From: an uncultured Acidobacteriota bacterium
GTDB taxonomy: Bacteria; Acidobacteriota; Thermoanaerobaculia; UBA5066; Gp7-AA6
Length of the DNA: 64,000 nt
Direction: 5' to 3'
Assembly (NCBI GenBank): GCA_963736455.1
Contig: CAVTON010000001.1
Location: forward strand, 778,270 to 842,269
In this document: positions 358 to 25,062 of the stretch, piece by piece
How positions within the stretch are numbered: the stretch's first letter is position 1
Layout: every line of letters starts with the position of its first letter
Program-made: the position numbers and the translations under genes
Notes under the pieces: generated by a model
What the model saw: the letters and a program-made list of their open reading frames with translations, nothing else
The model's database searches: none
Told to the model about the DNA's origin: nothing

Positions 358-377
358 TACAATGGAACGAATTCATG
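358..377 (+). promoter_or_regulatory. Candidate -10 element (TACAAT, 358-363) about 11 nt upstream of the ATG at 375; a short-leader or leaderless start for the glycosylation operon
   Basis: TACAAT hexamer in an otherwise GC-rich 145-nt divergent intergenic region between the partial ligase (start 230, minus) and the DUF2298 gene (375, plus). This is sequence-only inference. Confidence 0.25.
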
Positions 378-2546
378 CGGGACATTCTGGCATGGGCCCT
401 CGCGACCGAGCTGATGGGCCTCGCCGTCCTGCCGCTGCTGCGCTCCTTCTTCGGCAACCGCCGCGACGCGGCGCTCCTGTCGCGGCCGGTGGGTCTCGCC
501 ATCGTCGCCTACGTCGGCTGGCTCCTCTCGATTCTGACCACGTTCGGCTTCCGCCGATTCACGATGATCGCGGCCCTCGGAGCCATCGCGGCCGTCGCGC
601 TCGCCGTGCGCCGGCGATCGGACCTGGATTCCGTCGCCCGGGCGCCGTGGTGGGGCCACGAGGAGAAACTCGGCGCGATCGTCTTCTGGTCGGCTTCGGC
701 GGTGTTTCTCCTCATCCGGGCGGCGGGTCCCGCGATCCTCGGCGCGGAGAAGTTCATGGATCTCGCCTTTCTCAACTCGCTGTCGCGCTACTCCACGATG
801 CCGCCCGCCGACCCGTGGATGGCGGGAAAGACCATCAACTACTACTACTGGGGATACCTGCTCGCCGCCGCGCAGGCGAAGCTCGCCGGCGTCGCGCCGC
901 TCATCGCCTACAACCTCGCCATCGCGACCTTCGCCGGCTCCTCGTTCGCGGCCGCGACGTGCCTCGGCTTGCGCCTCTCGCGCGGGCGCCTCGCGGTCGG
1001 CCTCGCGGCGGGCGGCGGCGCGGTGTTCGCCGGGAACGTGGCGGGGGCCTACGACGCCTGGTCGGCGCCCTTCGCGACCGATTTCGACTACTGGCACGCC
1101 TCGCGGGTCATCGGCCCCGAGAATTTCAAGACGATCAACGAGTTTCCTTTCTTCACGTTCTTCCACGCGGACCTGCATCCTCACCTCCTCGCATTTCCGT
1201 TCTTCATCGCGGCCTTCGCGGTGGCCCATCGTTGGGTCGAAGACGAGAACGCCCGCGGGCTCCGTGCGTGGCCCGGCCTCCTTCTCGTCGCGCTCGTGGC
1301 CGGGACGGCCCGCGCGGCGAACTTCTGGAACCTGCCGGCGATGGCGATTCTGCTCGCGGTCGGAGGCGCCTTCACCGCGACGCGCGGCGCCCGTCTTCCC
1401 TCGGTCCGCCAGGCGATCCTCGGCGGCCTCGCCGGCTTCGGGGTCTTCGTCGCCTCGCTGCTGCTCTTCTATCCCTACACGTCCTCCTTCGCCCTCGCCC
1501 AGCGCGGGCTCGGCCGCGCCACGATGTCCTCCGACATCCTCGAGTTTCTCGGCGTGTGGGGGATTCTCGTCGCCGTCTGCGCGGTCGGCCTCTGGCCATG
1601 GCTCTCGGAGGACTCCGAGCCGGCCCGCCGCCGGCGCAACTTCGGCCTCGCGGCGGCCGCGGCGGTCTCGGTCTTCGGCGCCCTCGCCCTCGGCAAGCCC
1701 GCTCTGTCGATCGTTCTCTTCCTCGCGCTGCTCGCGGCAAGGGCGGCCTGGCGCTCCCTTCGCTCCGCCGACGACGACGGGCCCGGGGTGTACGCCGCGT
1801 TTCTCGTGCTCCTCGGCCTCGGGATGATCGGCGGCTGCGAGCTCGTCTACTTCAAGGACACGTACGGCGAGAACCTTCAGCGGATGAACACGCTCTTCAA
1901 GTTCTACCTCCAGGCCTGGCCGCTCCTCGCGATCGGCGGCGCCGTCTTCGCGGCGCGGGCGTGGGATGCGGTCGGACGACGGAGCCGCGTCTTTCGAGCG
2001 GCCCTCGGCCTCTGCGCGCTGCTCGCGGCGCTCTGGCCCATCAACGTCACGGTCTCGCGCCTGCGACAGAGGGATGCCCTGTTTTCTCTCGACGCGCACG
2101 GACCGCTCGTGCGCCGGAACAAGGGGGACGCGGCCGTGATCGACTGGCTGCTGGCCAACGCCAAAGTCGGATCGGTGGTGCTCGAGGCATCGGGCGACCC
2201 GTACTCCGAATACGCTCGGATCTCGTCGCATACCGGGATCCCGACGGTTCTCGGCTGGGGAAACCACGAGGGTCTCTGGCGCTCGACCGCGACGGCCGAA
2301 GATCCGGAGGTCGCCGAGCGCGCCGCCCGCGTCCGGCTCTTCTACACGACGCCGGACGCGCGTGCCGCGTGGGAGATCCTCCAGAAGTACGGCGTGACCT
2401 ACGTGGTCCTCGGCGACATGGAGCGGAAGACCTACGGGTCGAATCCGGCCACCGCGGCGTTCCCGTTCCTGTACCCGGTCTTCGCATCCAACGGCACGGT
2501 GATCTTCTCGGTCTCGCAGCCCCGGCCGGCCGCGCCGGCGCGATGA
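375..2546 (+). CDS. DUF2298 / 'Chlor_Arch_YYY' (TIGR03662-like) polytopic membrane protein
   Basis: 723-aa ORF with many hydrophobic helices and the signature TINYYYWGYLLAAAQAKLAG, NEFPFFTFFHADLHPHLLAFPF and a C-terminal periplasmic-type segment (VLEASGDPYSEYARISSHTGIPTVLGWGNHE). It is paralogous to the middle domain of the 5610-10526 gene. Confidence 0.75.
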   Translation: MRDILAWALATELMGLAVLPLLRSFFGNRRDAALLSRPVGLAIVAYVGWLLSILTTFGFRRFTMIAALGAIAAVALAVRRRSDLDSVARAPWWGHEEKLGAIVFWSASAVFLLIRAAGPAILGAEKFMDLAFLNSLSRYSTMPPADPWMAGKTINYYYWGYLLAAAQAKLAGVAPLIAYNLAIATFAGSSFAAATCLGLRLSRGRLAVGLAAGGGAVFAGNVAGAYDAWSAPFATDFDYWHASRVIGPENFKTINEFPFFTFFHADLHPHLLAFPFFIAAFAVAHRWVEDENARGLRAWPGLLLVALVAGTARAANFWNLPAMAILLAVGGAFTATRGARLPSVRQAILGGLAGFGVFVASLLLFYPYTSSFALAQRGLGRATMSSDILEFLGVWGILVAVCAVGLWPWLSEDSEPARRRRNFGLAAAAAVSVFGALALGKPALSIVLFLALLAARAAWRSLRSADDDGPGVYAAFLVLLGLGMIGGCELVYFKDTYGENLQRMNTLFKFYLQAWPLLAIGGAVFAARAWDAVGRRSRVFRAALGLCALLAALWPINVTVSRLRQRDALFSLDAHGPLVRRNKGDAAVIDWLLANAKVGSVVLEASGDPYSEYARISSHTGIPTVLGWGNHEGLWRSTATAEDPEVAERAARVRLFYTTPDARAAWEILQKYGVTYVVLGDMERKTYGSNPATAAFPFLYPVFASNGTVIFSVSQPRPAAPAR

Positions 2547-3691
2547 AGATCCTGATGGCGGTCGACTATTACCGACCGCACGTCTCGGGCCTCACGATCT
2601 ACGTCGAACAGCTGGCCGAGGGACTCGCCCGGCGCGGGCACGCGGTGCGCGTCCTCGCCCATCGCCACCAGCCGGATCTGCCGCTCGAATCGGACGAGAA
2701 CGGGGTCCGCGTCGTCCGCGCCCCCGTGGCCGCGCGAATCGGCAAGGCGCTCGTCTCTCCCGCGATCCTCGCCCGGGCGCTGCGGGAGATCCCGCGAGCG
2801 GACGTGCTTCACCTGCATGCGCCGCTCGTCAACGCCGTGCCGCTGGCGTTTCTCGGCGCGACGCTCCGGGTGCCGATCGTCGTGACCTTTCACTGCGACC
2901 TGCAGTCGCCCCACGGCATCGGCCAGCGCTTCGTCGAGGTTGTGGCGCGGACCTCCCAGAACTTCGCCCTCGACCGCGCCGCGCGCGTCATCACGTACAC
3001 GGAGGACTATGCCCGGCATACCCGGCCGCTCGACGACCGTCTCGAGAAGGTCGGCTGGATCCTTCCCCCGGTCGCCGACCCGCCCGTGACCGGCCGGAGC
3101 GCCGGGGAGGTCCGCGAGCGTCTCGGCGTGCGCGGATCTCCGGTCCTGCTCTTTCTCGGCCGCTTCACCGAGGAGAAGGGCCTCCCCGTGCTCGTCCAGG
3201 CGTTCGATGCCGTGCGACGACGATTTCCGAACGCGGCGCTGCTGCTCGCCGGCGCGAAGAACGTGCCGGGCGAGTCGGTCCTCGAGAGGATCGGTTCGCG
3301 GCTCGACGACCCCGGGTCGGGCGTGGTCGCACCGGGCATCGTGCCGCCCGGAGAGATCGCGGATCTCTTCACCATTTCGGACGTTCTCGTCCTGCCCTCG
3401 ATCAACGCGACCGAGTCCTTCGGGCTGGTCCAGGTCGAGGCCATGCTGCGCGGAGTCCCGTCCGTGGCCTCGGACCTGCCCGGCGTGCGCCAACCGGTCC
3501 AACTGACCGGAATGGGCGAGATCGCGCCGATCGGGGACGCCGCCGGCCTCGCCCGGCAGATTCTTCGGGTGCTGGAGACGCCGGCGCGCTATCGCCGCCC
3601 GCGCGAACAGATCCGGGCGCTCTTCGAGCCGGAACGCACGCTGCGGGAGTACGAGGTCGAGTACGCGACGGCCATGAAGGGGCAACGGTGA
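2543..3691 (+). CDS. Glycosyltransferase family 4 (GT4, GT-B fold)
   Basis: The in-frame ATG at 2543 overlaps the upstream stop (ATGA). MKILMAVDYYRPHVSGLTIYVEQLAEGLARRGHAV... has the GT4 N-terminal signature, and the C-terminal part has the EX7E-like region (INATESFGLVQVEAMLRGVP). The 230-2542 part of the 1153-aa ORF is an out-of-frame artefact. Confidence 0.8.
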   Translation: MKILMAVDYYRPHVSGLTIYVEQLAEGLARRGHAVRVLAHRHQPDLPLESDENGVRVVRAPVAARIGKALVSPAILARALREIPRADVLHLHAPLVNAVPLAFLGATLRVPIVVTFHCDLQSPHGIGQRFVEVVARTSQNFALDRAARVITYTEDYARHTRPLDDRLEKVGWILPPVADPPVTGRSAGEVRERLGVRGSPVLLFLGRFTEEKGLPVLVQAFDAVRRRFPNAALLLAGAKNVPGESVLERIGSRLDDPGSGVVAPGIVPPGEIADLFTISDVLVLPSINATESFGLVQVEAMLRGVPSVASDLPGVRQPVQLTGMGEIAPIGDAAGLARQILRVLETPARYRRPREQIRALFEPERTLREYEVEYATAMKGQR

Positions 3692-4503
3692 GGCCACCCG
3701 TTCCCGTCGAGCGGATCCTTCGCAGCCACCTGCGGGAAATGCCCCTTCACCGCGTCCTCATGCGCACCATCGAGGCGCAGATCCTGTCTCAGACCGATTT
3801 CGCGAGGCCGATCCTCGACGTGGGCTGCGGCGACGGGCACTTCGGTTCGGTTCTCTTTCCCGAAGGAGCCGACGTGGGCCTCGATCCGGGCCTCGCCGAC
3901 CTTGCGGAAGCGCGGGATCGGCGCGTCTATCGCTTCACGACGGCGGCCGACTCCGGCGCGATGCCCTTTGCCGACGGCGCATTCGGGTCCGTCGTCTCCA
4001 ACTGCGTCTTCGAACACATCCCCGAGATCGAGAAGACGATCGCCGAGATCGGCCGCGTTCTGAGGCCGGGGGGCACGTTCGCGACGACCCTCATCGGACA
4101 GCACTTCCGGGACTTCCTGACCGACGCGCGGGCCTGGCGCCGTCTCGGACTCTCGGCAGCGCATCGCGCCTACGTGGACTGGTTCAATCACAAGTCGGTT
4201 CACTTCCACTTCGACCCGCCCGAAATCTGGCGCGCGCGGTTCGAAGCGGCGGGCCTGGAGGTCGTGCGCTGGCGGTACTACATGTCGCCCGACGCCATGC
4301 ATGCCTTCCACCGATACCACTACACGAGCCTTCCCCATCTGGTCGCGCGCAAGCTGACGGGCCGGTGGGTGCCGCTGCCCGGGCTGATGGACAACGCGTT
4401 CTGGATCCAACGCCTGCGGCGCTGGGTCGACGAACCCGAGCCGGAGGCCGGAGCCTGCATCGCGTTCGTGTGTAGGAGAATGCCCCAATCTCCTGTAAAA
4501 TGA
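3688..4503 (+). CDS. Class I SAM-dependent methyltransferase (Methyltransf_11-like)
   Basis: The GTG start overlaps the GT4 stop (GTGA). ILDVGCGDGHF (motif I), FGSVVSNCVFEHIPE and LRPGGTF motifs are present. Confidence 0.8.
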   Translation: MRPPVPVERILRSHLREMPLHRVLMRTIEAQILSQTDFARPILDVGCGDGHFGSVLFPEGADVGLDPGLADLAEARDRRVYRFTTAADSGAMPFADGAFGSVVSNCVFEHIPEIEKTIAEIGRVLRPGGTFATTLIGQHFRDFLTDARAWRRLGLSAAHRAYVDWFNHKSVHFHFDPPEIWRARFEAAGLEVVRWRYYMSPDAMHAFHRYHYTSLPHLVARKLTGRWVPLPGLMDNAFWIQRLRRWVDEPEPEAGACIAFVCRRMPQSPVK

Positions 4504-4535
4504 TCGGCTTAGGCTAGTTTTTCGTTGACGAAAAC

Positions 4536-5603
4536 ATGCGATTTTTGATCACCGGCGGAGCCGGTTTCATCGGCTCGAACGCCGCCCGGCGACTCCGTGC
4601 CGAGAAGCACGACGTCGTCGTGCTGGATAGCTTCATGCGCCCCGCTTCCGTCTTCAACCGAGCGTGGCTCGAGGCCCTCGACCCGAAGATCCGGTTGATC
4701 GAAGGCGACGTCCGCGACTCCGCCGCCCTCGCCCGCGTGCTCGCCGAACCCTTCGACGCCGTGCTCCACCTGGCGGGCCAGGTCGCCGTGACGACGTCGA
4801 TCGTGGATCCGGTCACCGACTGGGAGATCAATGCCCTCGGAACGTTCCGCCTGCTCGAGGCCCTGCGCCGGCGATACGCCGACGCCCCGGAGAAGGCGCC
4901 CCTCCTCCTGTATGCCTCGACCAACAAGGTCTACGGCCACCTCTCGATGGGAGAGGTCGTTCGGGAGGGCCGCTGGGACTTCCGCAGCCTGCCCCAGGGC
5001 GTCTCCGAGACCGAGCCGCTCTCCTTCGAGTCGCCGTACGGCTGCTCGAAAGGCGCGGCCGACCAGTACGTCATCGATTACCACCGCAGCTTCGGCCTTC
5101 CGACGGTCGCCCTGAGGCAGTCGTGCATCTACGGTCCCCGCCAGTTCGGCGAGGAAGACCAGGGCTGGGTCGCCTGGTTCGCGCTGGCCGCGGCGTTCGG
5201 CCTCCCGATCACGTTCTACGGCGACGGCCTGCAGGTGCGGGACCTTCTCTGGGTGGACGATCTCGTCGCGCTGTATCTCGCCGCGGCGGCCGACCCGCAG
5301 AAGGTCGCCGGCCGCGCCTACAACGTCGGAGGCGGACCGGCCTTTCGCCTGTCGCTCAAGGAGCTGATGGTCCTCCTCGAGAAGAAGCTCGGCAAGCCGA
5401 TCCCGATCGGATCGGCGCCGGCGCGGCTCGGAGACCAGCCCGTTTTCTACTGCAACGTGGATCGCGCCGCGCAGGACCTCGGCTGGCGTCCCCGCGTTTC
5501 GCCGGACGAGGGCGTCGACCGGCTGCTTTCCTGGATCGGCGGGAGCCGGGAGGAGATCGGCCGCTTCCTGACCCGCAAGGGCCTGAAGATCGCGGCCCCC
5601 TAG
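4536..5603 (+). CDS. NAD-dependent epimerase/dehydratase (extended SDR) family sugar-nucleotide enzyme
   Basis: MRFLITGGAGFIGSN Rossmann motif and YGCSKGAADQY (the catalytic YxxxK); 355 aa. Confidence 0.85.
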   Translation: MRFLITGGAGFIGSNAARRLRAEKHDVVVLDSFMRPASVFNRAWLEALDPKIRLIEGDVRDSAALARVLAEPFDAVLHLAGQVAVTTSIVDPVTDWEINALGTFRLLEALRRRYADAPEKAPLLLYASTNKVYGHLSMGEVVREGRWDFRSLPQGVSETEPLSFESPYGCSKGAADQYVIDYHRSFGLPTVALRQSCIYGPRQFGEEDQGWVAWFALAAAFGLPITFYGDGLQVRDLLWVDDLVALYLAAAADPQKVAGRAYNVGGGPAFRLSLKELMVLLEKKLGKPIPIGSAPARLGDQPVFYCNVDRAAQDLGWRPRVSPDEGVDRLLSWIGGSREEIGRFLTRKGLKIAAP

Positions 5604-5609
5604 CCTCCC

Positions 5610-8600
5610 GTGCCCAACCGCATGTCCCGCGATCGCGCCCGCGCGATCCTCTTCCTCCTGCTGGCGGCGGGAGCGGTCCTGCGGTTCCAGGGCCTGAACT
5701 GGGACGACGGCCACCATCTGCATCCGGACGAGCGCTTCATCTCGATGGTCGAGGAGAAGCTCGCGTTCCCGAAGTCCGCCGCCGAGTACTTCGACGCGAA
5801 GCGTTCGACGCTCGACCCTTACAACCGCGGCGAAGGATCCTTCGTCTACGGCACGCTGCCGATCGTGGTCGCGAAGGTCATCGCCCCGCTCTTCGGCCGC
5901 CGCGGCTACGACGGCACCTACCTGATCGGCCGGGGTCTGTCCGCGCTATTCGACCTCTTCACGGTCTGGCTCGTTTACCGGATGGCGCGCCGATTCGCGC
6001 ATCGCCGCGCCTCGCTCGTCGCGGCCGCCCTCTCGGCTTTCTGCGTGCTCGGGATTCAGCTGTCCCACTTCTGGGCCGTGGACACCTTCCTCACGACGTT
6101 CACCGCGGCCGCGCTGCTCGGCTCGGTGCGCATCGCCCAGAGAAAGGCGGGCTGGGGCGGCTGGGCCTTGACGGGCGCCGCGATCGGCCTGGCCGTGGCG
6201 TGCAAGATCACCGCGCTCGCCCTGCTGCTGCCGCTCGGCGTCGCGGCGCTCGCCGGCGCCCTCCGGGAGAAGGACGGCTTCGGCGCGGGGTTTCTCCGGG
6301 CCGTTCCCCGCGTTCTCCTGGCGCTCGGCGCCGCCGCCGCGACCATCCGCGTCTTCCTTCCGCACATCTTTCTCGGCCCGAGCCCCCTTTCGTTCCGGCT
6401 CGATCCCCGCTGGATCGAGGACCTGCGGCGGCTGAAGGCGCTGACGAGCTCGGTCGCGGGCTTCCCTCCGGCCCTCCAGTGGGCGGGCCGAACGGTGCTC
6501 TTTCCGATCGAGAACCTCGTGCTCTGGGGAGCGGGCGTCTTCTTCGGCGTCACGGCGCTCGTCGCCCTCGCGTGGGCCTCCGCGGCCGTCTGGCGCCGCC
6601 GCGCCTGGGATCTCGCGCCGCTGTGCGCCTACGTCCTCTTCCTCTTCGCGTACCACGGGCTCACTCTCGTCAAGTCGATCCGCTATCTCTACCCCGCCTA
6701 CCCCGCGCTCGCGGTCCTCGCCGGCGTCTTGCTGTCGCGGTGGATCGAGAGCGCGCGCCGGCCGCGCCTGGCGCGCGCGACGGCCCTCGCCGTCGTCGGC
6801 GGGACCGCCCTGTGGGCGTTCGCCTTCACCGCGATCTACCGCCGTCCCCAGTCGCGCGTCACCGCCACGCGCTGGATCTACGCCCACGTCCCTCCGCGGG
6901 AGCGCATCGTCAACGAGTCGTGGGACGACGGTCTTCCCCTGCCCATGCCGGGTTACGACCCGGGCGTCTACTCGGGACCGCCGCAGCTTCCCCTTTTCGA
7001 CCCCGACTCGCGGGAGAAAGCGGAGATCCTCGTCCGCAGCCTCGCCGAGACCGACTGGGTCGCCGTCACGTCCAACCGCGTCTACGCCAACGTGACGCGG
7101 GTGCCCGATGTTTTCCCCATGTCGATCGCCTACTACCGCGCGCTCTTCGACGGCAGCCTCGGGTTCGATCGCGCCGCGGATTTCACGTCGTATCCCTCGC
7201 TCGGACCGCTCCGCTTCCCGGACGATCGGGCCGAGGAGCAGTTCACCGTCTACGACCACCCGCGGGTCCTGCTGTTCCACAAGACGGCGCGCTTCTCGAA
7301 GGAGGCCGCCCGCCGGCTCCTGCTTTCGGCGATCCCTCGGACGCCGCCCACGATGAACGAATGGGAGAAGTGGCCGCGGTCCCTGCGGCGCGTCAGCGCG
7401 CCCGTGCGCCCCGATCACCGGCCCGAGGCCGAGTCTTCGGCGCCTTCGGTCGAGCCGGGCGAGACGGCCGGAAGCTCGCTCTACGCCGCCGCCGCCTGGT
7501 ACCTCGCCCTCGCGCTCGTTGGCCTCCTCGCGTGGCCGATCGTCTGGACGCTCTTTCCCCGCCTCGGGGACCGGGGCTTCGGGCTCTCGCGCCTCCTCGG
7601 GCTCGTCTTCACGACGTACGCGATGACCGTCGCCGTCACGTTCCATGCGCTCGGCAACGGGCGCCGCGCGGCGCTCGGGTGCCTCGCCGTGCTCGCGATC
7701 GTTTCCGCGTGGATCGGGCTGCGCGAGCGCTACGATCTCGCGCGCTTTCTGCGCGAGAACCGGCGCGCGCTCCTTCAGAGCGAGATCGTCTTCGCCGTCG
7801 GATTCCTGCTCTTCCTGGGACTCCGCGCGCTGAACCCCGAAATCTACTGGGGCGAAAAGCCCATGGACTTCTCGATCCTGAACATCCTCGTGCGGACGCG
7901 GTCGCTTCCCGCTTCCGACCCGTGGCTCGCCGGCGCGCCCCTCGGCTATTACACGTTTGGCCAGGAGATGGTCGTCTTCCTGACGTTCCTGACGAACCTG
8001 TCCACGCGATTCACGTTCAACCTCGCGTTCGGATTCCTCGGGGGAACGATTCTCCAGGGCGCGTATTCGCTGGCCCGCAACTGGGGAGGGCGCCTCCGCG
8101 CCGGGATCGCGGGCGCCGGCCTGACCCTGCTTCTCGGAAACCTCTCGGGCCTGCGCGAGTGGCTCATCCACAAGCGCGCGCTCGACTGGGACTACTTCTG
8201 GGCGACCTCGCGGGTCGTCAAGGACACGATCAACGAGTACCCCTTCTGGAGCCTGAGCTTCGCCGATTTGCACGCCCACGTTCTGGCGATCCCGATCTTT
8301 CTCGCCTTCGCCACCGCGGCGCTCCACCTGGTGCGCCTGCACATGGCGCCGGCGACGGGAACGCGCCCGCGGCTCGTGGCGGCGGCGCTGCTCGGCTTTC
8401 TCGGGGCGGCGCAGGCCCTGACCAACGCCTGGGACGTGCCTCTGCTGGCAGGCCTGCTCGCGGTCACGGCCCTCGCCGCGGCGCTGGCGGCGCAGCGTTT
8501 CACCGTCGCCGGCGTCGGCCGGGCGCTCGGCGCGCTCGCGATCTCCGCGGCGTCCGGGTACCTGCTCGCCCGGCCGCTGTGGGTCCGGGCCGGCGGGGCG

Positions 8601-13216: not shown

Positions 13217-13223
13217 AGGCGCG

Positions 13224-17109: not shown

Positions 17110-17131
17110 CGGCCGGCCCGAAGGCCGGCCG
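17110..17131 (-). terminator. GC-rich hairpin terminator downstream of the SLH-like gene 17158-17955
   Basis: Identical CGGCCGGCCCGAAGGCCGGCCG hairpin, followed on the minus strand by GTTTCATTTTCAG (T-rich). Confidence 0.55.
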
Positions 17132-17157
17132 CGAAAGAATCGATTAGTGGATTTCGC

Positions 17158-17955: not shown

Positions 17956-18036
17956 CTTTTTTCTCCTTGTGATTCGCTCGATTCTAGCATCCGCGACGCG
18001 TGACGAGCGTCACACGCGGACCGCGCCCGCTGCCGG

Positions 18037-19395
18037 TCAGCTCCGGAACACCTTCTCCTCGGTCCCGTCCAGCCAGCGATCCACGAGCTCGACGCCCTGC
18101 ATGAGCGAGTGATCCTGGTTGCCGATCTCGTACTTCCACGAGCCGAAGCGGCCTCGCGAGAAGATCCCGCGAGGCTCGAGATAGGCGTGGATCGTCTCGA
18201 GCGCCGGATTCCGATCGACCGACGGGATCGGGTACGAGTGGCCGGCGTGGATGAGAAAGACCGTCTCGATCAGCGGAAGATCGGACGCTTGAAGGATTCC
18301 CTCGGCGACGAGGCCGTCCACGACGGCCTGGCCGAAGTCGCCCTCGGGCAGCGGCTTGAACTTCGAGTAGGACGTTTCGGTCAGGACCGAGAAGTACTTC
18401 GACGTGTCGCCGCCCGGAACGATCTCGGGAGAGTAGTTGGACAGGTACGTCATCCGGTAGAACGGCGTCTTCGGGTTCGGAAAGTAGATCCAGTTCTTGT
18501 CCGACGGCGAGGGGCGGCGCAGGCCGACGCCGGCCGAGAACAGCCGGTTGAAGAGGAGCGACTGCGCCGCCGCCCGGACCTTCGCCGGCGCGTGCGTCAG
18601 GCGCGCGACGAACGCGTCCAGGGGAATCGTCGTCAGCAACCGGTCGTAAGAGCGCGTCGTTCCGTCGGTGAACGCGATCTCGCGCTTCTCCTCGTCCACT
18701 GAGATCGCGCGCTTGTGGAAACGGATGCGGTCGTCGCCGAGAAACGGCACGACTCCCTTCCAGAGCCCGAGCGTTCCGCCGTGGAGGGGGTAGCCGAACT
18801 TCGCGTTGGGACCCCAGTCGGTCGTCTTCGGCACGACCGTCGTCTCGATCGCCTTGCGCCAGTCGACGACCGACACGCGCTCGGCGATCCAGTAGTAGCC
18901 CATCTCCTTCAGGGGCGTCGCCCAGACCTTGAAGTTGTAGGGGTTCATGAAGTGCTTCGCGACGCCCGATCCGAACTTCGCGAGGACCCACTCCTCGAAG
19001 TTGCGAAAGGCGCGGTCCTTGTCGATCGTCTGCGACTCGACGAGGCCGATCAGGCACTCGAGCATCGCTTTCTCGGGCAGCGACGAAAGGTGGTTCTGAA
19101 ACGGATACCGGACGTACTTGTCCTCGAACTTGATCCAGCTCTCGCGGTCGATCCAGCGAATCTGATCGCCGAGGACCTTCCCGAGGAAATCGTTGAAGTA
19201 CTTGTACCCCGAAAAGATGATGTGGCCCGACACGTCCCACGTCCATCCCTTCGGGTCCTTGAAGCTCGTGGCGAGGCCGCCGACCTGTCCCGACCTCTCG
19301 AAGATCTCGAAAGCGTCCTCGCCGCGCTCGCGGAGCCGGTACGCGGCGCCGAGGCCCGTCGGGCCCGCGCCGAGAATGACGATGCCGCCGCTCAC
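18037..19395 (-). CDS. glf: UDP-galactopyranose mutase, eukaryote-type (UDP-Galp to UDP-Galf)
   Basis: ILGAGPTGLGAAYRL FAD motif; GHIIFSGYKYFNDFL; YPFQNHLSSLP; FEEWVLAKFGSGVAKHFMNPYNFKVWA; C-terminal SRGRFGSWKYEIGNQDHSLMQGVELVD. These closely track the fungal/kinetoplastid-type UGM signature blocks. Confidence 0.85.
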   Translation of the reverse strand: MSGGIVILGAGPTGLGAAYRLRERGEDAFEIFERSGQVGGLATSFKDPKGWTWDVSGHIIFSGYKYFNDFLGKVLGDQIRWIDRESWIKFEDKYVRYPFQNHLSSLPEKAMLECLIGLVESQTIDKDRAFRNFEEWVLAKFGSGVAKHFMNPYNFKVWATPLKEMGYYWIAERVSVVDWRKAIETTVVPKTTDWGPNAKFGYPLHGGTLGLWKGVVPFLGDDRIRFHKRAISVDEEKREIAFTDGTTRSYDRLLTTIPLDAFVARLTHAPAKVRAAAQSLLFNRLFSAGVGLRRPSPSDKNWIYFPNPKTPFYRMTYLSNYSPEIVPGGDTSKYFSVLTETSYSKFKPLPEGDFGQAVVDGLVAEGILQASDLPLIETVFLIHAGHSYPIPSVDRNPALETIHAYLEPRGIFSRGRFGSWKYEIGNQDHSLMQGVELVDRWLDGTEEKVFRS

Positions 19396-20195
19396 TGGGC
19401 GGCCCGTCCCTTGGCGACGAGCCGCCGGAGCTGCTCGGCCTGCTTCATCTCGGCCCGGAGCTCGAAGAGGTAGCGGATCACGCGTGCGATCGTGCCCAGC
19501 ATCTTGAACGGACGATGGATGGACTGCCCGGCCTCGCGCGGGAAGTGCCGCACCACGACCTCGGTCACCTTCCAGCCGGCGATCCGGCAGCGCACGAAGA
19601 TCTCGTCGCCGACGAAGTTGATCCGGTGCTTGATCTCGATGCGGCGCGCGACGTCCCGCCGGAAGGCCCGGCAGCCGGCGTTGATGTCGTGGAGCGGCGA
19701 GCCCAGGATCCAGTGCGACAGGACGCGAAGGCCGCGCGAGAGGATGAGCCGTCCGAGCGGGTCGTGCCGGACCTTCTTCCAGCAGAAGACGACGTCGGCG
19801 CCGCGGTCGATCGCGTCGAGAAAGAGCGGCGCGTCGGCCATCGTGTGCTGGCCGTCGCCGTCGACGACCATCACGACCTCGCCCGGCACGTTCTGCAGCG
19901 CCGTCTCGGTCGCCACCGCGTAGCCCTTGTTGCCGTCGTGGTGGACGACGGAAACGCGCGGATCCTTCTTCGCGAGCTCTTCGGCGATCTCCCCCGTCCG
20001 GTCCCGGCTGCCGTCGTTGACGACGACGACGTGCCAGGTGAGGTCGGGGATCGCGGAGAGCGACGCGACGGCTTCGGCGACCGTCTTCGCGATCAGCTCT
20101 TCTTCGTTGTAGGCCAGGAACCCGACTCCGAAGCGCACCTTCGGCTCCGGCCGAGGGGGCGTCTGGACGCCCCCGACTTCGCGATCAGCGGCCAT
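19392..20195 (-). CDS. GT2 polyprenyl-phosphate sugar synthase (DPM1/GtrB-like)
   Basis: FLAYNEEELI ... VVVVNDGSRDRTGEIAEEL ... VVDGDGQH: canonical GT2 DXD region of dolichol/bactoprenol-phosphate hexose synthases. The stop overlaps the glf start by 4 nt. Confidence 0.8.
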   Translation of the reverse strand: MAADREVGGVQTPPRPEPKVRFGVGFLAYNEEELIAKTVAEAVASLSAIPDLTWHVVVVNDGSRDRTGEIAEELAKKDPRVSVVHHDGNKGYAVATETALQNVPGEVVMVVDGDGQHTMADAPLFLDAIDRGADVVFCWKKVRHDPLGRLILSRGLRVLSHWILGSPLHDINAGCRAFRRDVARRIEIKHRINFVGDEIFVRCRIAGWKVTEVVVRHFPREAGQSIHRPFKMLGTIARVIRYLFELRAEMKQAEQLRRLVAKGRAAQ

Positions 20196-21129
20196 AGATG
20201 ATCCATCCTGCAGTTGCCACCCAGCCCATCACGATGACCAGGAGCCACGGATCGTCCACGAGGAGGGCCTGGGTGGGGCTGCCCCCTCCGCCGCGGCGGT
20301 ACACGAGGTGAACGTAGCGCGCGAGGCCAAGAACGACGAACGGGATCGTCGCCGCGAGCGTCTGGCCGCGATAGCGCGCGACCGTCTCCGGGATGACGCT
20401 GTACGCGCTGTACGCCGACGCCGTCGCCAGGCCCGTGACGATGAAGAGATAGTCGAGCCCCTCGGCGCCGTAGGAGGCGAGTGCCGGCCGGTGCTCGGAG
20501 GAGGTCCGGTGGCCGGCGTGATGGAACTCCCACTGCCGCTTTCCGGCGACGAGGAAGAGCGCGAGCAGGTAGGCGCAGACGATCAGGAAGAGCGACGGGA
20601 AGACTTCCGCCAGCGCCGCCCCGGCGAGGGCGCGCAGCGGCATCCCCGCCGCGACGATCAGCGCCTCGAGGAAGGGAATGCCCTTGAGGACGAAGGAATA
20701 CGCGAGCATGAGCGCGGCGTACGCGGCGCACCACCGGCCGAACGCCGGCCGGAGGAGGAACGCAGCCCCGAGGCCTCCGACCTCGAGGACGACTGCACCC
20801 GCCACCGCGGCCGGGACGGACAATCGGCCGGACGCGAGCGGCCGGTGGCGCTTCTCGGGATGCGCGCGGTCGCGGTCGCGGTCCATGACGTCGTTGACGA
20901 GGTAGATGCCGCTCGCGATCGCGCTGAAGGCCGCGAATCCCGCCGCGGCGAGCACCCACCCTTCGGCCGCCTTGAGCGCTCCGCCGAAGAGAAACGGCAG
21001 CGGCAGGACGAGATTCTTGATCCACTGCTTCGGCCTCGCCGCCGCCGCGAGCGCGAGCAGAGATCGATCGGCGTGCGACCCTTCGGCCGGCACGACGCGA
21101 CCGGACGATGTCGCTGCCATTTCTCTCAT
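20185..21129 (-). CDS. UbiA-family prenyl-phosphate phosphoribosyltransferase (decaprenyl-phosphate 5-phosphoribosyltransferase/DPPR synthase-like)
   Basis: PKQWIKNLVLPLPFLFGG and YLVNDVMDRDRDRAHPEKRHRPLASGRLS (NDxxDxxxD followed by HP.KR.RP.A.G) match the Rv3806c-type DPPR synthase signature rather than UbiA/MenA/DGGGPS. 8-9 TM helices. The stop overlaps the GT2 start by 11 nt. Confidence 0.75.
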   Translation of the reverse strand: MREMAATSSGRVVPAEGSHADRSLLALAAAARPKQWIKNLVLPLPFLFGGALKAAEGWVLAAAGFAAFSAIASGIYLVNDVMDRDRDRAHPEKRHRPLASGRLSVPAAVAGAVVLEVGGLGAAFLLRPAFGRWCAAYAALMLAYSFVLKGIPFLEALIVAAGMPLRALAGAALAEVFPSLFLIVCAYLLALFLVAGKRQWEFHHAGHRTSSEHRPALASYGAEGLDYLFIVTGLATASAYSAYSVIPETVARYRGQTLAATIPFVVLGLARYVHLVYRRGGGGSPTQALLVDDPWLLVIVMGWVATAGWIIYGR

Positions 21130-21204
21130 TTTAAACGATTAACCCTCGATTGTCTCCTCGCCGCTGTAGGATTCTCGGCGGCTGAGCCGATAAGGAGTCC
21201 TCCC

Positions 21205-22527
21205 ATGCCGGAGCAGTACGTCGCCCGCGTCGTCGACCTGACGGATCCCGCCGCCCAGCGCATCCAGAACATGTCGATCGACGAGGCGCGCGCGCGCGTG
21301 GCGCGCGGCGATCCCGGGAGCGTGCGCGAGATCGACGGCTCGTTCTCACTCGTCGCCCGCGTCGGGCGCCGCGTCCGCCTCGCGCGATCGCTCGATCGGC
21401 CCCTGCGGTACTTCCTCGCCAAGGAAGCCGCCGGTCCGGCGCTCGTCGTCTCGGACCGCATCGACGCCATCCACGCCTTTCTCGAGAAGGAAGGCCTGGC
21501 CGCCCAATTCCATCCGAGCTACACGCGCATGGTGCCCGCGCACTACGTGGTAGATCTCGAGCTGATCGGCTGCCCCGACCCGTCACCGACGTACGAGCGC
21601 TACTTCACGCCGGCGCGCGCGGCGTTCTCCGCCGATCCCGCGGCGATCGGATCGGCGTACGTCGGAGCGCTGTGCGGGGAGATCGCGGGCTGGATCGAGA
21701 GGGTGCCCGCGCGCGACCCGATCGGAGTCGCCTTCTCCGGCGGGATCGACAGCGGCGCCGTGTTTCTCGCCGCCTGCCACGTCCTGCGCCGGCGGGGGGC
21801 CGACCTCGGCCGCCTGAAAGCGTTCACGCTCTCCGCCGGCGGAGGCGAGGACCTCGTGCAGGCCCGGACCTTCCTCGAGAGGCTCGGGCTCGGACTCTTT
21901 CTCGAGCCGATCGAGGTCGCGCCGGATGCCCTCGACCCGCTCGAGGCGGTTCGCGTCGTCGAGGACTACAAGCCGCTCGACGTCGAGTCGGCGACGATGG
22001 CGCTCGCGCTCTGCCGCGGAATTCGCGAGCGGTACCCGCAATGGCGCTTCCTCCTCGACGGCGACGGCGGCGATGAGAACCTGAAGGACTACCCGATCGA
22101 GGAGAACGCCGAGCTCACGATCCGGAGCGTGGTGAACAATCCCCTGCTCTACCAGGAGGGCTGGGGCGTCGGCCGGATGAAGCACTCCCTGACGTACTCG
22201 GGTGGCCAGAGCCGCTCGTACAGCCGCACCTACGCGCCTCTCCGGCGGTGCGGCTTCGAGGGGTTCAGCCCCTTCACGCGGCCGTCGGTCATCGAGATCG
22301 CCGAGGCCATCCCGTTTTCCGAGATGGCGGCCGGCGACACGGCCCGGCTCTATGCGATCAAGGGCGAGGTCGTCGCGCGGGGCATCGCGGAGATCACGGG
22401 CTTCGAGATGCCGGTGTTTCCGAAGCGCCGCTTCCAGCACGGCGCCGTCGGCGCTCACGCGGCCTCGCGCTTCGCGCCCTTCGGCGAGGCCGCCTACCGG
22501 TCGCACCTGCTCGCGCGCTACGCGTGA
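21205..22527 (+). CDS. Asparagine synthetase B-like ATP-dependent amidotransferase/amide synthetase (PP-loop; degenerate N-terminal domain without catalytic Cys)
   Basis: AAGGAG RBS 8 nt upstream of the ATG at 21205. VAFSGGIDSGAV PP-loop (SGGxDS). The N-terminal remnant DGSFSLVARVGRRVRLARSLDRPLRYF resembles the AsnB DGMFAF..ARDRFGIKPLYY block. It begins MPEQ... with no Cys2, as in beta-lactam-synthetase-type AsnB homologs. The upstream part of the 739-aa ORF is an artefact. Confidence 0.75.
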   Translation: MPEQYVARVVDLTDPAAQRIQNMSIDEARARVARGDPGSVREIDGSFSLVARVGRRVRLARSLDRPLRYFLAKEAAGPALVVSDRIDAIHAFLEKEGLAAQFHPSYTRMVPAHYVVDLELIGCPDPSPTYERYFTPARAAFSADPAAIGSAYVGALCGEIAGWIERVPARDPIGVAFSGGIDSGAVFLAACHVLRRRGADLGRLKAFTLSAGGGEDLVQARTFLERLGLGLFLEPIEVAPDALDPLEAVRVVEDYKPLDVESATMALALCRGIRERYPQWRFLLDGDGGDENLKDYPIEENAELTIRSVVNNPLLYQEGWGVGRMKHSLTYSGGQSRSYSRTYAPLRRCGFEGFSPFTRPSVIEIAEAIPFSEMAAGDTARLYAIKGEVVARGIAEITGFEMPVFPKRRFQHGAVGAHAASRFAPFGEAAYRSHLLARYA

Positions 22528-22534
22528 CCCCGTC

Positions 22535-23497
22535 TTGAGCTCCGCCTACCCGGCCGGGGACGCCGCGCGCGATCGGTGGATCCTGGAACGGCGGCCGCTC
22601 CGAAACGTTCGCGATCCGCGGCGCGCCTACGCCGCGCACTTCGAGCTCGAAGCGGCGGAAGCCGGCGAGGCGGTGCCGGTCGCCACGATCTTCCTGACGA
22701 ATCGCGAGTGCCCGTGGCGCTGCCTGATGTGCGACCTCTGGAAGAACACGCTGACCGGGACCGTGCCCTCCGGCGCGATCGCGGAACAGATCCGGGTCGC
22801 CCTGGCCGGACTCCCCGCGGCCCGCCGCGTCAAGCTCTACAACGCCGGGAGCTTCTTCGATCCGAAGGCGATTCCTCCCGGCGACCTCGACGAGATCGCG
22901 TCGCTCGTGAGCCCCTTCGAGCGCGTGGTCGTCGAGGCGCATCCGGCCCTCGTCGGCGAGTCCTGCCGGCGCTTCCACGACCTCGTCGGCCGGCGCCTCG
23001 AGGTCGCGATGGGGCTCGAGACGATCCATCCGGACGTCCTGCCGAGGCTGAACAAGCGGATGCCTCTCGACCGTTTCGCCGGGGCGGCGGCCTTTCTCCG
23101 CGACGCGGGAATCGCCCTGCGCGTCTTCGTCCTCGCGGGGCTTCCGTTCGTCGGCGAGGCCGAAGGCCTCGACGCCACGAAGCGGTCGATCTCCTGGGCC
23201 TTCGACCACGGCGCATCGTCGGTCGCCGTCATCCCCACGCGTTCGGGAAACGGCTCGCTCGAGGCACTCGCGGCGGCAGGAGACTTCGCCGAGCCCCGGC
23301 TTTCGGTGCTCGAGGACGCCGTGGATTTCGGCATCGGCCTCGGGCGGGGCCGCGTCTTCGCGGATCTCTGGGACCTCGGGCGGTTTCGCCGGTGCGGCGC
23401 CTGCTTCGAGACTCGCGCCGCGCGGCTGGCCGAGTCGAACCTCCGCCAGCGCGTCTCGGCCCGGGTCGCCTGTTCGGAGTGCGGAGGGCGGGCGTGA
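22535..23497 (+). CDS. Radical SAM enzyme
   Basis: CPWRCLMC (CxxxCxxC) cluster about 40 aa from the N-terminus; TTG start at 22535, 8 nt after the upstream stop; the stop overlaps the next gene's GTG. Confidence 0.7.
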   Translation: MSSAYPAGDAARDRWILERRPLRNVRDPRRAYAAHFELEAAEAGEAVPVATIFLTNRECPWRCLMCDLWKNTLTGTVPSGAIAEQIRVALAGLPAARRVKLYNAGSFFDPKAIPPGDLDEIASLVSPFERVVVEAHPALVGESCRRFHDLVGRRLEVAMGLETIHPDVLPRLNKRMPLDRFAGAAAFLRDAGIALRVFVLAGLPFVGEAEGLDATKRSISWAFDHGASSVAVIPTRSGNGSLEALAAAGDFAEPRLSVLEDAVDFGIGLGRGRVFADLWDLGRFRRCGACFETRAARLAESNLRQRVSARVACSECGGRA

Positions 23498-25062
23498 CGC
23501 ATCCCGTCGACGTCGCGGTGATCGGCTCCGGCTTCTCCGGCTCGCTCCTGGCCCTGATCGCGCGGCGTCTCGGGCGATCCGTCGTCCTCCTCGAGCGCGG
23601 CCGGCATCCGCGCTTTGCGATCGGAGAGTCGTCGTCGCCGCTGGCGAACCTGCTGCTCGAGGAGCTTGCGCGGCGGTACGACCTGCCGCGGGTGCGGCCG
23701 CTCTCCGCCTGGGGACCGTGGCGCCGCGCGTACCCCGAGGTCGGCTGCGGCCTGAAGCGCGGCTTCACCTTCTACGCGCACGAGGCGGGGCGGCCCCTTG
23801 CGGCCGATCCCGGCCGCCGCGACCAGCTCCTCGTGGCCGCGAGCCCGCACGACGAGGTCGCCGACACGCACTGGTATCGCCCCGACCTCGACCGCTTTCT
23901 CGCCCGGGAGGCCGAGAACGCCGGCGCGGAATACGTCGACGAGGCGGAGGCCGCCGTGGTTTCGCATGGACCGCACGGCTTCGTCCTGGCCGCATCGAGG
24001 CACGGCCGGCGTCGCGAATACCGCGCCCGTTTCGTCGTGGACGCGACCGGCCCGAACGGATTCCTCCAGCGCGCGTTGGGGCTCCCCGCTTCCTCGTTCG
24101 CGGCCATGCCCGCGACCGAGGGCCTGTGGGCGCACTTCACGGGAGTGGGACGGCTCGACGAGACGGCTCCCTCGCCTTGCCCCGACCGACCGCCCTATCC
24201 GATCGACGACGCCGCGGTCCATCACGTGTTCGCCGGCGGCTGGATCTGGGTCCTGCGCTTTGCGAATGGCGTCACGAGCGCCGGGGTCGCCGCCGAGCCG
24301 GCGCTCGGAAACGAGCTGCGGCTGTCCGACGGTGCGCCCGCGTGGGATCGCCTCCTCGAACGCCTCCCCACCGTCCGCGCCCAGTTTTCGGAGGCTCGGC
24401 CGGCCACCTCCTTCGTTCACCGCTCCGGCCTTCCCTTCCGCAGCGACGCGGCGGCCGGACCGGCCTGGGCCCTGATGCCCTCGGCGGCAGCCTTCGTCGA
24501 TCCGCTCCTCTCGACCGGGTTCCCGCTGACGCTTCTCGGCATCGAGCGCCTCGCCGCGGCCCTGGAAACGGAGTGGGGCCGGCCCGGCTTCGCGGCGAGA
24601 CTGCGCGAGCACGAGCGCCTCACCCTCTTCGAGGCGGACACGGCCGCCCTTCTCGTCGGGGCCCTGTACGCGACGTTTTCCGATTTCCCCGTCTTCGCCG
24701 CGCTCACGATGCTGTACTTCGCGGCCGCGAGCTACGCCGAAGCGGCGCGGCGGCTCAAGCGGCCGCAGCTTTCGGGCTCGTTTCTGTCGGGAGACCATCC
24801 CATCTTCGGGCCGGCATTGAAGGCCTGCTGCTCCACCGCCCTCGAGCGCGATGGCCGCCGCCGGGACGAGCTCCTCGCGATGGTCCGGCGGGCGATCGAA
24901 CCGCTCGACGTGATCGGGCTCTCCGACACGAGCCGGCGCAACTGGTACCCCGTCCTCGCGGAGGACCTGATCGCTTCGCGGGAGAAGCTCGGGGCCAGCC
25001 GGGAGGAGATCGAGGTCCTCCTGGAATCCCTGGCCGCCGCGCCCTCAGTGCATGGAATGTGA
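23494..25062 (+). CDS. FAD-dependent oxidoreductase, flavin-dependent halogenase / geranylgeranyl-reductase-like fold
   Basis: GGAGGG RBS, GTG start (GTGA overlap). VAVIGSGFSGSLLA dinucleotide-binding motif; FAIGESS; HVFAGGWIWVLRF resembles the WxWxIP block of flavin-dependent halogenases; 522 aa. Confidence 0.7.
   Translation: MTHPVDVAVIGSGFSGSLLALIARRLGRSVVLLERGRHPRFAIGESSSPLANLLLEELARRYDLPRVRPLSAWGPWRRAYPEVGCGLKRGFTFYAHEAGRPLAADPGRRDQLLVAASPHDEVADTHWYRPDLDRFLAREAENAGAEYVDEAEAAVVSHGPHGFVLAASRHGRRREYRARFVVDATGPNGFLQRALGLPASSFAAMPATEGLWAHFTGVGRLDETAPSPCPDRPPYPIDDAAVHHVFAGGWIWVLRFANGVTSAGVAAEPALGNELRLSDGAPAWDRLLERLPTVRAQFSEARPATSFVHRSGLPFRSDAAAGPAWALMPSAAAFVDPLLSTGFPLTLLGIERLAAALETEWGRPGFAARLREHERLTLFEADTAALLVGALYATFSDFPVFAALTMLYFAAASYAEAARRLKRPQLSGSFLSGDHPIFGPALKACCSTALERDGRRRDELLAMVRRAIEPLDVIGLSDTSRRNWYPVLAEDLIASREKLGASREEIEVLLESLAAAPSVHGM

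Follow-up and report, generated by a model that had tools for sequence, protein, structure and literature searches.

Which sugar donors serve the membrane-embedded proteins of the DUF2298/Chlor_Arch_YYY (hereafter YYY) and Agl23 families? A literature search for the function of DUF2298 found nothing, and the question is raised anew by a locus in the first 25 kb of a 64,000-nucleotide stretch of DNA (hereafter the window) from an uncultured Acidobacteriota bacterium of the class Thermoanaerobaculia (contig CAVTON010000001.1, positions 778,270 to 842,269 of the forward strand). Here, genes for such proteins lie beside genes for a UDP-galactopyranose mutase (UGM), a family 2 glycosyltransferase (GT2) and a UbiA-family protein. 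Our analysis leads us to propose that the core of this locus specifies an extracytoplasmic furanosylation system, composed of a DUF2298/YYY glycosyltransferase of the GT-C fold, an Agl23-family protein with an NHL beta-propeller, the UGM, the GT2 and the UbiA protein. From gene content and gene order, we put the probability of this reading at about one half. Thermoanaerobaculia are abundant, mostly uncultured soil bacteria, and the locus may bear on their envelope glycans.

Gene models were picked by third-position GC, the window being 70% G+C, and the chosen models were scanned against Pfam and NCBIfam, covering 41 window proteins. Positions 375-26253 hold 17 genes, G1 to G17 (Table 1). The plus-strand unit at 375-15458 comprises G1 to G7, with intergenic gaps of -4, -4, 41, 6, -4 and 61 bp. 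The minus strand carries the lipoprotein gene G8, the SLH protein genes G9 and G10, and then G11, G12 and G13, with overlaps of 11 bp between G13 and G12 and 4 bp between G12 and G11; G14 to G16 diverge from G13 on the plus strand. A preliminary description had divided this region into a GT-C/NHL island, a donor-synthesis block and a divergent modification operon, and the gene models and family scans confirm the positions of all three blocks. Its statement that only two SLH-like proteins separate the first two blocks stands as regards the SLH pair itself, G9 and G10, but the "only" does not, as a third small gene, G8, lies there too.

G11 is the best-supported member of the donor block. In a search of PDB sequences its residues 4-447 align with solved eukaryotic UGMs at E values of 1.6e-95 (4dsg) and 5e-94 (3uka); 4dsg and the 3uk- and 3ut-series structures we take to be the T. 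cruzi and A. fumigatus enzymes, respectively. The same search returned no bacterial Glf/UGM structure at E<=0.01, and the Pfam GLF family (PF03275) likewise gave no match at that threshold, G11 matching only Amino_oxidase and NAD_binding_8. The missing GLF match first cast doubt on the identity of G11 as a UGM, a doubt that the PDB search overturned. The N-terminus reads GAGPTG, the GxGxxG motif for FAD, and 14 of 15 active-site positions are identical to those of the A. fumigatus enzyme (AfUGM), the roles of whose residues have been described (PMC3322874, PMC3624792). In G11, H58, G57, R84, Y97, F99, Q100 and R173 correspond to AfUGM H63, G62, R91, Y104, F106, Q107 and R182, and W302, Y304, R314, Y388, R416, Y422 and N426 to W315, Y317, R327, Y419, R447, Y453 and N457; the sole difference is S56 in place of G61. 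Both catalytic arginines, the His-loop histidine and the equivalent of Trp315 are thus kept, and Trp315 has been described as eukaryote-specific and not conserved in prokaryotic UGMs (PMC3322874), which share 14-18% identity with the eukaryotic enzymes (PMC3624792). Over its full length G11 is about 40-45% identical to the UGMs of A. fumigatus, T. cruzi and Leishmania; it differs from them in length (452 amino acids against about 480-520), in lacking some eukaryotic inserts, in the glycine-to-serine change, and in its bacterial host and operon context. That G11 is a eukaryotic-type UGM, predicted to convert UDP-galactopyranose (UDP-Galp) into UDP-galactofuranose (UDP-Galf), is strongly supported. 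We also considered and rejected a carotenoid/CrtI-like reading of the UbiA, GT2 and amine-oxidase-like proteins: CrtI/phytoene desaturase families match only the first ~50-90 residues, at 1e-5 or weaker.

The protein encoded next to it, G12 (267 amino acids, no transmembrane segment), bears D112-G-D114 as the DxD motif of the GT-A fold and resembles enzymes that load sugars onto polyprenyl phosphates. Its best NCBIfam match is the haloarchaeal dolichyl-phosphate (Dol-P)-hexose transferase (9e-23, residues 28-240), followed by PgfS, ArnC, AglJ and PpgS, and the PDB search aligned residues 21-246 with the ArnC and DPMS structures at 5e-15. Whole-domain alignments (residues 26-246) were obtained solely with Dol-P-hexose transferase, PgfS, ArnC, AglJ, PpgS and DPMS; other GT2 families cover the N-terminal half only, and GlfT2 gave no match in the PDB search. 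We propose that G12 could be a polyprenyl-P-Galf synthase, with Galf as its donor sugar suggested by the overlap with G11 and by the adjacency of the two genes in all relatives described below. G13, in turn, finds its best solved relative in the DPPRS structure 8j8j (3e-34 in the PDB search) and matches NCBIfam DPPRS models at 1.8e-53, as compared with 3e-12 for the next UbiA family outside DPPRS. It contains N79-D80-x-x-D83-x-x-x-D87 (NDxxDxxxD, loop II), a motif common to other UbiA enzymes that does not discriminate on its own, and R198-x-x-E201 (RxxE, loop IV); residues of both motifs have been mutated in Citrobacter ORF15, from which their roles are known (PMC11127046).

On the side of the presumed transferases, G1 scores 501 bits against TIGR03662 (cutoff 300) and keeps the invariant E125 and D129. 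It has no PDB sequence match, leaving DUF2298 without a sequence-detectable solved relative. An AlphaFold2 (AF2) model of G1 (pLDDT 86, pTM 0.91) clearly predicts a GT-C fold: all seven Foldseek matches at E<=0.001 are GT-C enzymes, the neighbors include AftA, AftB and AftD, and the globular domain at the C-terminus is similar to its AglB counterpart. In G5, PMT_2 covers residues 110-216, DUF2298/TIGR03662 residues 626-1328 (444 bits against 300) and the NHL propeller residues ~1380-1630. G6 scores 323 bits against TIGR03663 (cutoff 126), with PMT_2 at 8e-13 and NHL at 1e-44, the latter domain also matching the propellers of TRIM71 and PknD. Its HHDES and YHGP motifs keep the DE and HGP signatures of the Agl23 family; across the locus the YYYxG and DE/HGP signatures of the TIGR03662/TIGR03663 pair are present and all family cutoffs are passed. 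HPDER (at G5 residue 40, in the first loop), HHDES in G6 and E125/D129 in G1 are candidate catalytic acidic residues of the first extracytoplasmic loop. G7 has ~14 hydrophobic segments and no match in the PDB sequence search, and in relatives other proteins with 10-12 transmembrane segments occupy its position. Counting G1, two modules inside G5, G6 and G7, the window has five GT-C-like modules. In relatives, NHL proteins also occur as stand-alone products with a hydrophobic anchor at the N-terminus, an arrangement that fits periplasmic NHL modules.

Is the proximity of these two groups of genes more than an accident? We compared 82 non-redundant loci, all from Thermoanaerobaculia, with UGM identities of 71-97% (the nearest species representative, L005, at 97%); the UGM-alignment genome scan used clade-specific patterns and thus returned this class only. 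Denominators are the loci with enough flank for the component scored, and insertions or deletions in long-read MFD metagenome-assembled genomes can mimic gene loss in tables of called genes. The GT2 gene adjoins the UGM gene in 82/82 loci and the UbiA gene is present in 76/76. A homolog of G6 lies within 10 kb of the UGM gene in 49-51 of 54 loci and one of G5 in 47 of 54, as compared with 29 of 53 for the flanking Ku gene, so that the linkage of G6 to the UGM gene is tighter than that of the flanking genes (91% vs 55%). Co-location of the donor block with the GT-C genes therefore exceeds chance within the lineage, and the physical linkage put forward in the preliminary description is borne out within the class. 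Conservation of its entire 25-kb arrangement is a different matter: the core is retained, and the SLH genes and G14 to G16 are confined to a subclade. The UGM gene and G6 lie 1.6 to 10.4 kb apart, and the cassette between them turns over among proteins with 10-12 transmembrane segments, stand-alone NHL proteins, Methyltransf_21 proteins, SLH proteins and G8-like domains; a G7 homolog is found in 8/54 loci. One locus, L089, keeps the order G1-GT4-methyltransferase-SDR-G5. Another, L090, is compacted to DUF2298, Agl23-like/NHL and UGM-GT2-UbiA genes, without G2 to G4. This five-gene locus defines the core, and G2 to G4, G7 to G10 and G14 to G16 are accordingly accessory or variable.

We envision a scenario in which G11 makes UDP-Galf from UDP-Galp in the cytoplasm, a step with strong homology support. 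G12, translationally coupled to G11, would load the sugar onto polyprenyl phosphate to yield polyprenyl-P-Galf, as its family, the gene overlap and the invariance of the pair suggest. G13, judged by its homology, would use phosphoribosyl pyrophosphate to form polyprenyl-P-ribofuranose-5-phosphate, from which a separate phosphatase would remove the 5-phosphate. The lipid-linked furanoses would then need to reach the periplasmic face, and within the core only the Agl23-family module of G6 is a candidate for this step. By analogy, G6 is a candidate flippase and/or GT-C transferase for lipid-linked donors: PMC11182771 describes archaeal Agl23 as a putative flippase for hexose-P-Dol and reports that, in liposomes, the protein in purified form moved a lipid-linked oligosaccharide across the membrane. 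At the periplasmic face, the GT-C modules of G1, G5, G6 and G7 and their counterparts in the variable cassette would transfer the sugars from donors and to acceptors that we infer, with periplasmic NHL propellers or beta-sandwich modules engaging the acceptor, for which a surface glycan and secreted proteins are both candidates. The most specific form of this proposal, in which polyprenyl-P-Galf arises through a eukaryote-type UGM and a Dpm1/Agl22-like GT2 and is used together with polyprenyl-P-ribofuranose by DUF2298/YYY and Agl23 GT-C enzymes, is tentative, and we would expect it to fail somewhat more readily than to hold.

Several observations weigh against the furanosylation proposal. No curated equivalog cutoff is reached by either G12 or G13 (at best 80.3 bits against 375 for G12; 181.9 against 234, 179.8 against 207 and 140.7 against 474 for G13 and the DPPRS models), and we therefore treat both as relatives of the named families and not as confirmed members. 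The donor-gene identities of the preliminary description (a DPPRS-like UbiA, a polyprenyl-P-sugar GT2 and a UGM) hold at this family level, with the UGM of the eukaryotic type. The sugar specificity of G12 cannot be read from its sequence. No 5-phosphate phosphatase (HAD/PRP domain or PAP2) and no DprE1/DprE2 occurs in G1 to G17 or in the related loci L001-L004, L089 and L090, and no GtrA, SMR or MATE flippase was found in the locus. A literature search for a named lipid-phosphate-linked Galf donor found nothing, the absence of a phrase being weak evidence. Moreover, the Ku and MerR-TPR neighbors are also syntenic with the UGM gene (29/53), and part of the linkage may be inherited gene order.

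The main weakness is that the linkage is an innovation of a single lineage, with no independent phylogenetic replication. Prokaryotes have many UGMs of the eukaryotic type (985 clusters at 50% identity with E<=1e-30), with members in Geobacter (G. sulfurreducens), Pelotalea, Desulfonatronovibrio, Omnitrophota and bacteria of the candidate phyla radiation (CPR). There the UGM gene sits in classical surface-polysaccharide loci with Wzm/Wzt, GT4, GT9, Stealth, Bac_transf, WecG, Wzy_C and sulfotransferase genes. We collected 84 loci from such lineages (L085-L088 and L091-L170, including a metagenome scan) and found YYY or Agl23 GT-C genes in none of them, which is why we confine the linkage to one lineage. 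A G13-like UbiA gene is present in one (the Geobacter locus L085, 38% identical) and a weakly G12-like GT2 gene about 10 kb from the UGM gene in two, L113 and L135, both of which belong to the classical Wzy or sulfated-polysaccharide kinds of locus and have no GT-C genes. The UGM-adjacent GT2 genes of Geobacter and Desulfonatronovibrio show no relationship to G12, and UGM in the other lineages appears from gene content to feed Leloir pathways. The contrast also helps the furanosylation proposal: elsewhere the machinery of undecaprenyl-pyrophosphate (Und-PP) assembly and export stands beside the UGM gene, whereas here only GT-C enzymes do, and the Pfam and NCBIfam scans found no initiating phosphoglycosyltransferase, Wzx/Wzy or ABC exporter at the locus.

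The blocks could instead be independent neighbors. The GT-C/NHL proteins would then be PMT/ArnT-like enzymes using an ordinary polyprenyl-P-hexopyranose (mannose or glucose) made elsewhere, the UbiA-GT2-UGM block would build another product, such as a glycolipid containing Galf or ribofuranose or a cytoplasmic intermediate, and the two would sit side by side through inheritance of gene order within the class. The synteny of Ku and MerR-TPR fits such an account, as does the finding that UGM and these GT-C families come together in no examined lineage besides Thermoanaerobaculia. TIGR03662/TIGR03663 pairs also occur in Chloroflexi and Archaea according to the TIGRFAM descriptions, in which we know of no stated link to UGM. 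Yet the linkage survives turnover of the cassette, altered flanks and compaction to five genes, at a frequency well above that of the flanks. G12 and G13 are the only nearby synthases of lipid-linked donors, G12 being the sole nucleotide-sugar transferase of the core, and the locus offers neither another donor synthase for its five GT-C modules nor another evident consumer of the lipid-linked products. We regard independence of the blocks as unlikely.

A second alternative leaves the blocks connected and changes the sugar: G12 would make a polyprenyl-P-hexopyranose (glucose or galactose), as Agl22 does, and UDP-Galf would pass to a Leloir Galf-transferase encoded elsewhere or to the GT4 protein G2. 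Such an arrangement would agree with the best family match of G12, the haloarchaeal Dol-P-hexose transferase, and with every other examined lineage, in which UGM is paired with a Leloir GT2, GT4 or GT9. It is harder to reconcile with the 4-bp overlap of G12 and G11 and the invariance of that pair, with the compact L090 block, which has no GT4 or other Leloir transferase, and with the lack of relationship between G12 and the UGM-adjacent GT2s of Geobacter and Desulfonatronovibrio. This alternative, too, seems to us improbable.

How does the proposed furanosylation system compare with known pathways? The preliminary description likened the locus to arabinogalactan synthesis, an analogy that we find loose. 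In mycobacteria, the cluster Rv3805c-Rv3809c comprises aftB, ubiA/DPPRS, the phosphatase gene Rv3807c, glfT2 and glf, and Galf addition takes place in the cytoplasm with UDP-Galf as donor. The window resembles that cluster in having UbiA, GT2 and UGM genes beside those of GT-C enzymes, in the kinship of G13 with DPPRS 8j8j and in the modeled fold of G1, near those of the furanosyltransferases AftA, AftB and AftD. However, its UGM is of the eukaryotic type and its GT2 is Dpm1-like, neither being an ortholog of Glf or GlfT2, a DprE1/DprE2 pair was not found among the scanned window proteins, and neither an Rv3807c-type PAP2 phosphatase nor a GlfT-type galactan polymerase was found at the locus. 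As a candidate DprE1 we examined a FAD_binding_4 protein at 62298-64000 and rejected it: it lies 41 kb away, runs past the end of the window (>567 amino acids) and has no ALO domain match.

Closer analogues, in our view, are the systems built from a polyprenyl-phosphate phosphoribosyltransferase (PPPRS), a flippase and a GT-C enzyme (PMC11127046) and the archaeal Agl22/Agl23 pair. The former is exemplified by Citrobacter youngae, with the PPPRS ORF15, the MATE flippase ORF14 and the GT136 GT-C enzyme ORF12, with or without the SDR epimerase ORF13 (Kelly et al. 2024, PMC11127046). Shared with it are a PPPRS-like UbiA protein with the NDxxDxxxD and RxxE motifs beside GT-C enzymes that have extra periplasmic binding domains, a GalE-like SDR gene nearby, and reliance, presumed for the window, on lipid monophosphate-linked donors with no Und-PP assembly machinery. 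Unlike that system, the window locus has no HAD/PRP phosphatase domain and no MATE/SMR flippase gene; its GT-C enzymes are DUF2298/YYY and Agl23/PMT_2 proteins, set apart from GT136 by Pfam/TIGR family only; its periplasmic modules are NHL propellers where the Citrobacter system has a carbohydrate-binding module (CBM); and its operon adds a UGM and a Dpm1-like GT2, which would imply a hexofuranose donor as well. In Haloarcula hispanica, Agl22 is a Dol-P-hexose synthase and Agl23 a putative hexose-P-Dol flippase, again as described in PMC11182771. G12 has Dol-P-hexose transferase as its best NCBIfam match and G6 passes the Agl23 cutoff, and in both cases a lipid-P-hexose would be made and then used outside the membrane; the window differs in its bacterial host, in the NHL propeller added to G6, in a sugar that is presumably a furanose and in the position of G12 far under the equivalog cutoff. 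From the Gtr, ArnC-ArnT and PpgS-Rv3779 systems, in which a GT2 synthase and a small flippase serve a GT-C enzyme, the locus differs in having no GtrA/SMR flippase, no transmembrane anchor on G12, several GT-C modules rather than one and a coupled UGM gene. What sets this locus apart from these systems is the pairing of a eukaryote-type UGM with a Dpm1-like GT2, the association of YYY/Agl23 GT-C enzymes with NHL propellers, and the number of GT-C modules, with no dedicated flippase or phosphatase found.

To our knowledge, the sole route of Galf into glycans is by Leloir transferases that use UDP-Galf and work on the cytoplasmic or Golgi side. If our proposal is correct, a lipid-phosphate-linked Galf donor acting outside the membrane would found a new branch of furanose glycobiology and extend the pentofuranose paradigm to hexofuranoses. 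It would likewise give a first donor assignment to the DUF2298/YYY and Agl23 families, which are common to archaea, Chloroflexi and Acidobacteriota, and would place an Agl23-type protein in bacteria as a flippase and/or transferase. As it stands, the locus offers candidate donors for DUF2298/Chlor_Arch_YYY proteins and bacterial Agl23 homologs.

The public annotation of G11 is "protoporphyrinogen oxidase", and members of its family are named "protoporphyrinogen/coproporphyrinogen oxidase" or "FAD-dependent oxidoreductase". A literature search turned up nothing on bacterial proteins of this eukaryote-type UGM family. These names are probably a systematic misannotation, one that would hide Galf biosynthesis in many genomes, Geobacter included. 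In the Geobacter sulfurreducens locus L085 (CP072789.1), the gene for a 547-amino-acid polytopic protein overlaps that of a PPPRS-like UbiA at positions 1-2339, where the two genes head a Wzm/Wzt O-polysaccharide-type locus that includes the UGM gene; this arrangement is a candidate pentofuranose three-component system in Geobacter.

Table 1. Predicted genes of the locus, with window positions and the evidence behind each assignment.
Gene	Positions	Strand	Assignment	Basis
G1	375..2546	+	Stand-alone DUF2298/Chlor_Arch_YYY membrane protein; predicted GT-C fold, oligosaccharyltransferase (OST)-like C-terminal globular domain	TIGR03662, AF2 model
G2	2543..3691	+	GT4 (GT-B) cytoplasmic glycosyltransferase, accessory	Glycos_transf_1, Glyco_trans_4_4
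G3	3688..4503	+	S-adenosylmethionine (SAM)-dependent methyltransferase, accessory	Methyltransf_11/23/25
G4	4545..5603	+	GalE/RmlB-like epimerase/dehydratase of the short-chain dehydrogenase/reductase (SDR) type, accessory	Epimerase E 9e-52
G5	5610..10526	+	1638-amino-acid fusion of PMT_2 GT-C, DUF2298/YYY GT-C and C-terminal NHL beta-propeller	Pfam/TIGRFAM
G6	10523..13216	+	897-amino-acid Agl23-family (TIGR03663) PMT_2-like membrane module with NHL propeller	TIGR03663, PMT_2, NHL
G7	13278..15458	+	726-amino-acid polytopic membrane protein, variable cassette	Weak PMT_2, 28.7 bits vs 26.1
G8	15496..16065	-	Lipoprotein (LPGC lipobox) with putative galactose-binding-like beta-sandwich domain, variable cassette	Sequence, weak ANAPC10 match
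G9	16255..17037	-	Secreted protein, one C-terminal SLH domain, subclade accessory	SLH 29.7 bits vs 20.8; signal peptide
G10	17158..17955	-	Secreted protein, one C-terminal SLH domain, subclade accessory	SLH 31.9 bits vs 20.8; signal peptide
G11	18037..19395	-	UDP-galactopyranose mutase, eukaryotic type	PDB matches and active-site residues
G12	19392..20195	-	Soluble/peripheral GT2, polyprenyl-phosphate glycosyltransferase type (Dpm1/ArnC/GtrB/Agl22-like)	NCBIfam, PDB, DGD motif
G13	20185..21129	-	UbiA-family polyprenyl-phosphate phosphoribosyltransferase-like protein (DPPRS/PPPRS-like)	PDB, NCBIfam, motifs
G14-G16	21205..25062	+	Asn-synthase-like / radical SAM / FAD-protein operon	Pfam/NCBIfam family matches

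The genes that lie between and beside the two blocks can be set apart from the core. G14 is an Asn-synthase-like PP-loop protein, G15 a RaSEA-like radical SAM protein and G16 an FAD protein similar to QhpG, geranylgeranyl reductase and halogenases; PDB sequence searches returned no relatives of G14 or G15. The three genes occur in 28/61 loci, namely 27/33 in the near subclade and 1/28 in the far subclade, and in L003, L004 and L090 a Ser/Thr kinase gene takes their place. Because the far subclade keeps the core, G14 to G16 are an accessory neighbor and not a conserved part of the system, which lends no support to the modification role that they had been given in the preliminary description.

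A similar argument applies to the SLH genes. G9 and G10 are paralogous (38% identical), and G10 is 22% Ser+Thr. Homologs of G9 are found in 18/28 near-subclade loci and 0/26 far-subclade loci, those of G10 in 19/28 and 1/26, and in L019, L073, L075 and L084 the SLH genes lie on the other side of the donor operon. Near-absent from the far subclade and variable in position, they are not required to define the core, which is independent of them. On the minus strand a terminator-like hairpin follows each gene, at 17132-17109 after G10 (a 10-bp GC-rich stem and a T-run) and at 16228-16211 after G9, and no CsaB-type pyruvyltransferase (PS_pyruv_trans) was found among the 41 window proteins scanned. 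The earlier idea that this machinery is for making a pyruvylated secondary cell-wall polymer or for glycosylation of the SLH proteins, with G14 to G16 modifying the product, has in its favor two genuine single-SLH proteins between the blocks, one rich in Ser and Thr, in a subclade where SLH genes are frequent at the locus, but is very unlikely given a far subclade that keeps the core with next to no SLH genes or G14 to G16, the relocated SLH genes, the separate terminator-like hairpins and the lack of csaB among the scanned window proteins. The identical GC-rich hairpin CGGCCTTCGGGCCGGCCG, followed by T-rich sequence, stands behind both G9 and G10, which fits tandem duplication of an SLH gene together with its terminator.

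Among the accessory genes of the plus-strand unit, G4 has the TGGAGFIG and Y165xxxK motifs, its matches to GalE and dTDP-glucose dehydratase being below cutoffs; it could supply UDP-Galp, or act as a lipid-linked pentose epimerase by analogy with ORF13 (PMC11127046). G8 shares 35% identity with the C-terminal domain of a 687-amino-acid, GT-C-like protein in L004, and a G8-like domain is found in 28/54 loci. A single-sequence model of G8 (pLDDT 69, moderate) gave weak fold matches to APC10, F5/8-C and CBM32/29, a hint that the domain may be a galactose-binding or CBM-like beta sandwich. The cassette proteins at L001 11396-13351, L002 13247-15205 and L004 11357-15362 are 634-687 amino acids long, with 10-12 transmembrane segments and no Pfam match; those of 651, 652 and 634 amino acids are 50-58% identical to each other, and the 687-amino-acid protein of L004 combines an FFCDEAV loop with the G8-like C-terminal domain. 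They are probably further uncatalogued GT-C-like enzymes. In several long-read MFD loci (for example L002 8342-9209), UbiA, G6 and G14 to G16 are split into frame-shifted pieces, probably because of indels in the assemblies and not because they are pseudogenes.

Outside the locus, the window carries genes for non-homologous end joining (NHEJ) and alpha-glucan metabolism, as well as those of a kinase, of BlaR and of an OprB porin, all unrelated to the glyco-locus. The NHEJ genes flank it: an ATP-dependent ligase fragment lies upstream at 1-263 (minus strand), and Ku at 27601-28494 (minus strand) and a full LigD at 28519-31071 (plus strand) lie downstream. In L089 and L090 (6434-9944), LigD is split into three genes (phosphoesterase, ligase and Prim-Pol) directly beside G1, and the Prim-Pol gene of L089 bears a radical SAM domain. 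At 46267-51885 the window encodes an 1872-amino-acid protein in which a Ser/Thr protein kinase is fused to an AAA_16 ATPase and a family-5 solute-binding-protein domain, and at 35254-43780 (minus strand) an alpha-glucan cluster with a GH77 4-alpha-glucanotransferase, a glucan phosphorylase, a GH57/DUF3536 protein and a branching-enzyme-like GH13 protein. Finally, G17 (25045-26253, minus strand), which has no family match, overlaps the end of G16 convergently by 18 bp, and its positional counterparts in L003 and L090 match Phenol_MetA_deg, a family of outer-membrane channel-like proteins.

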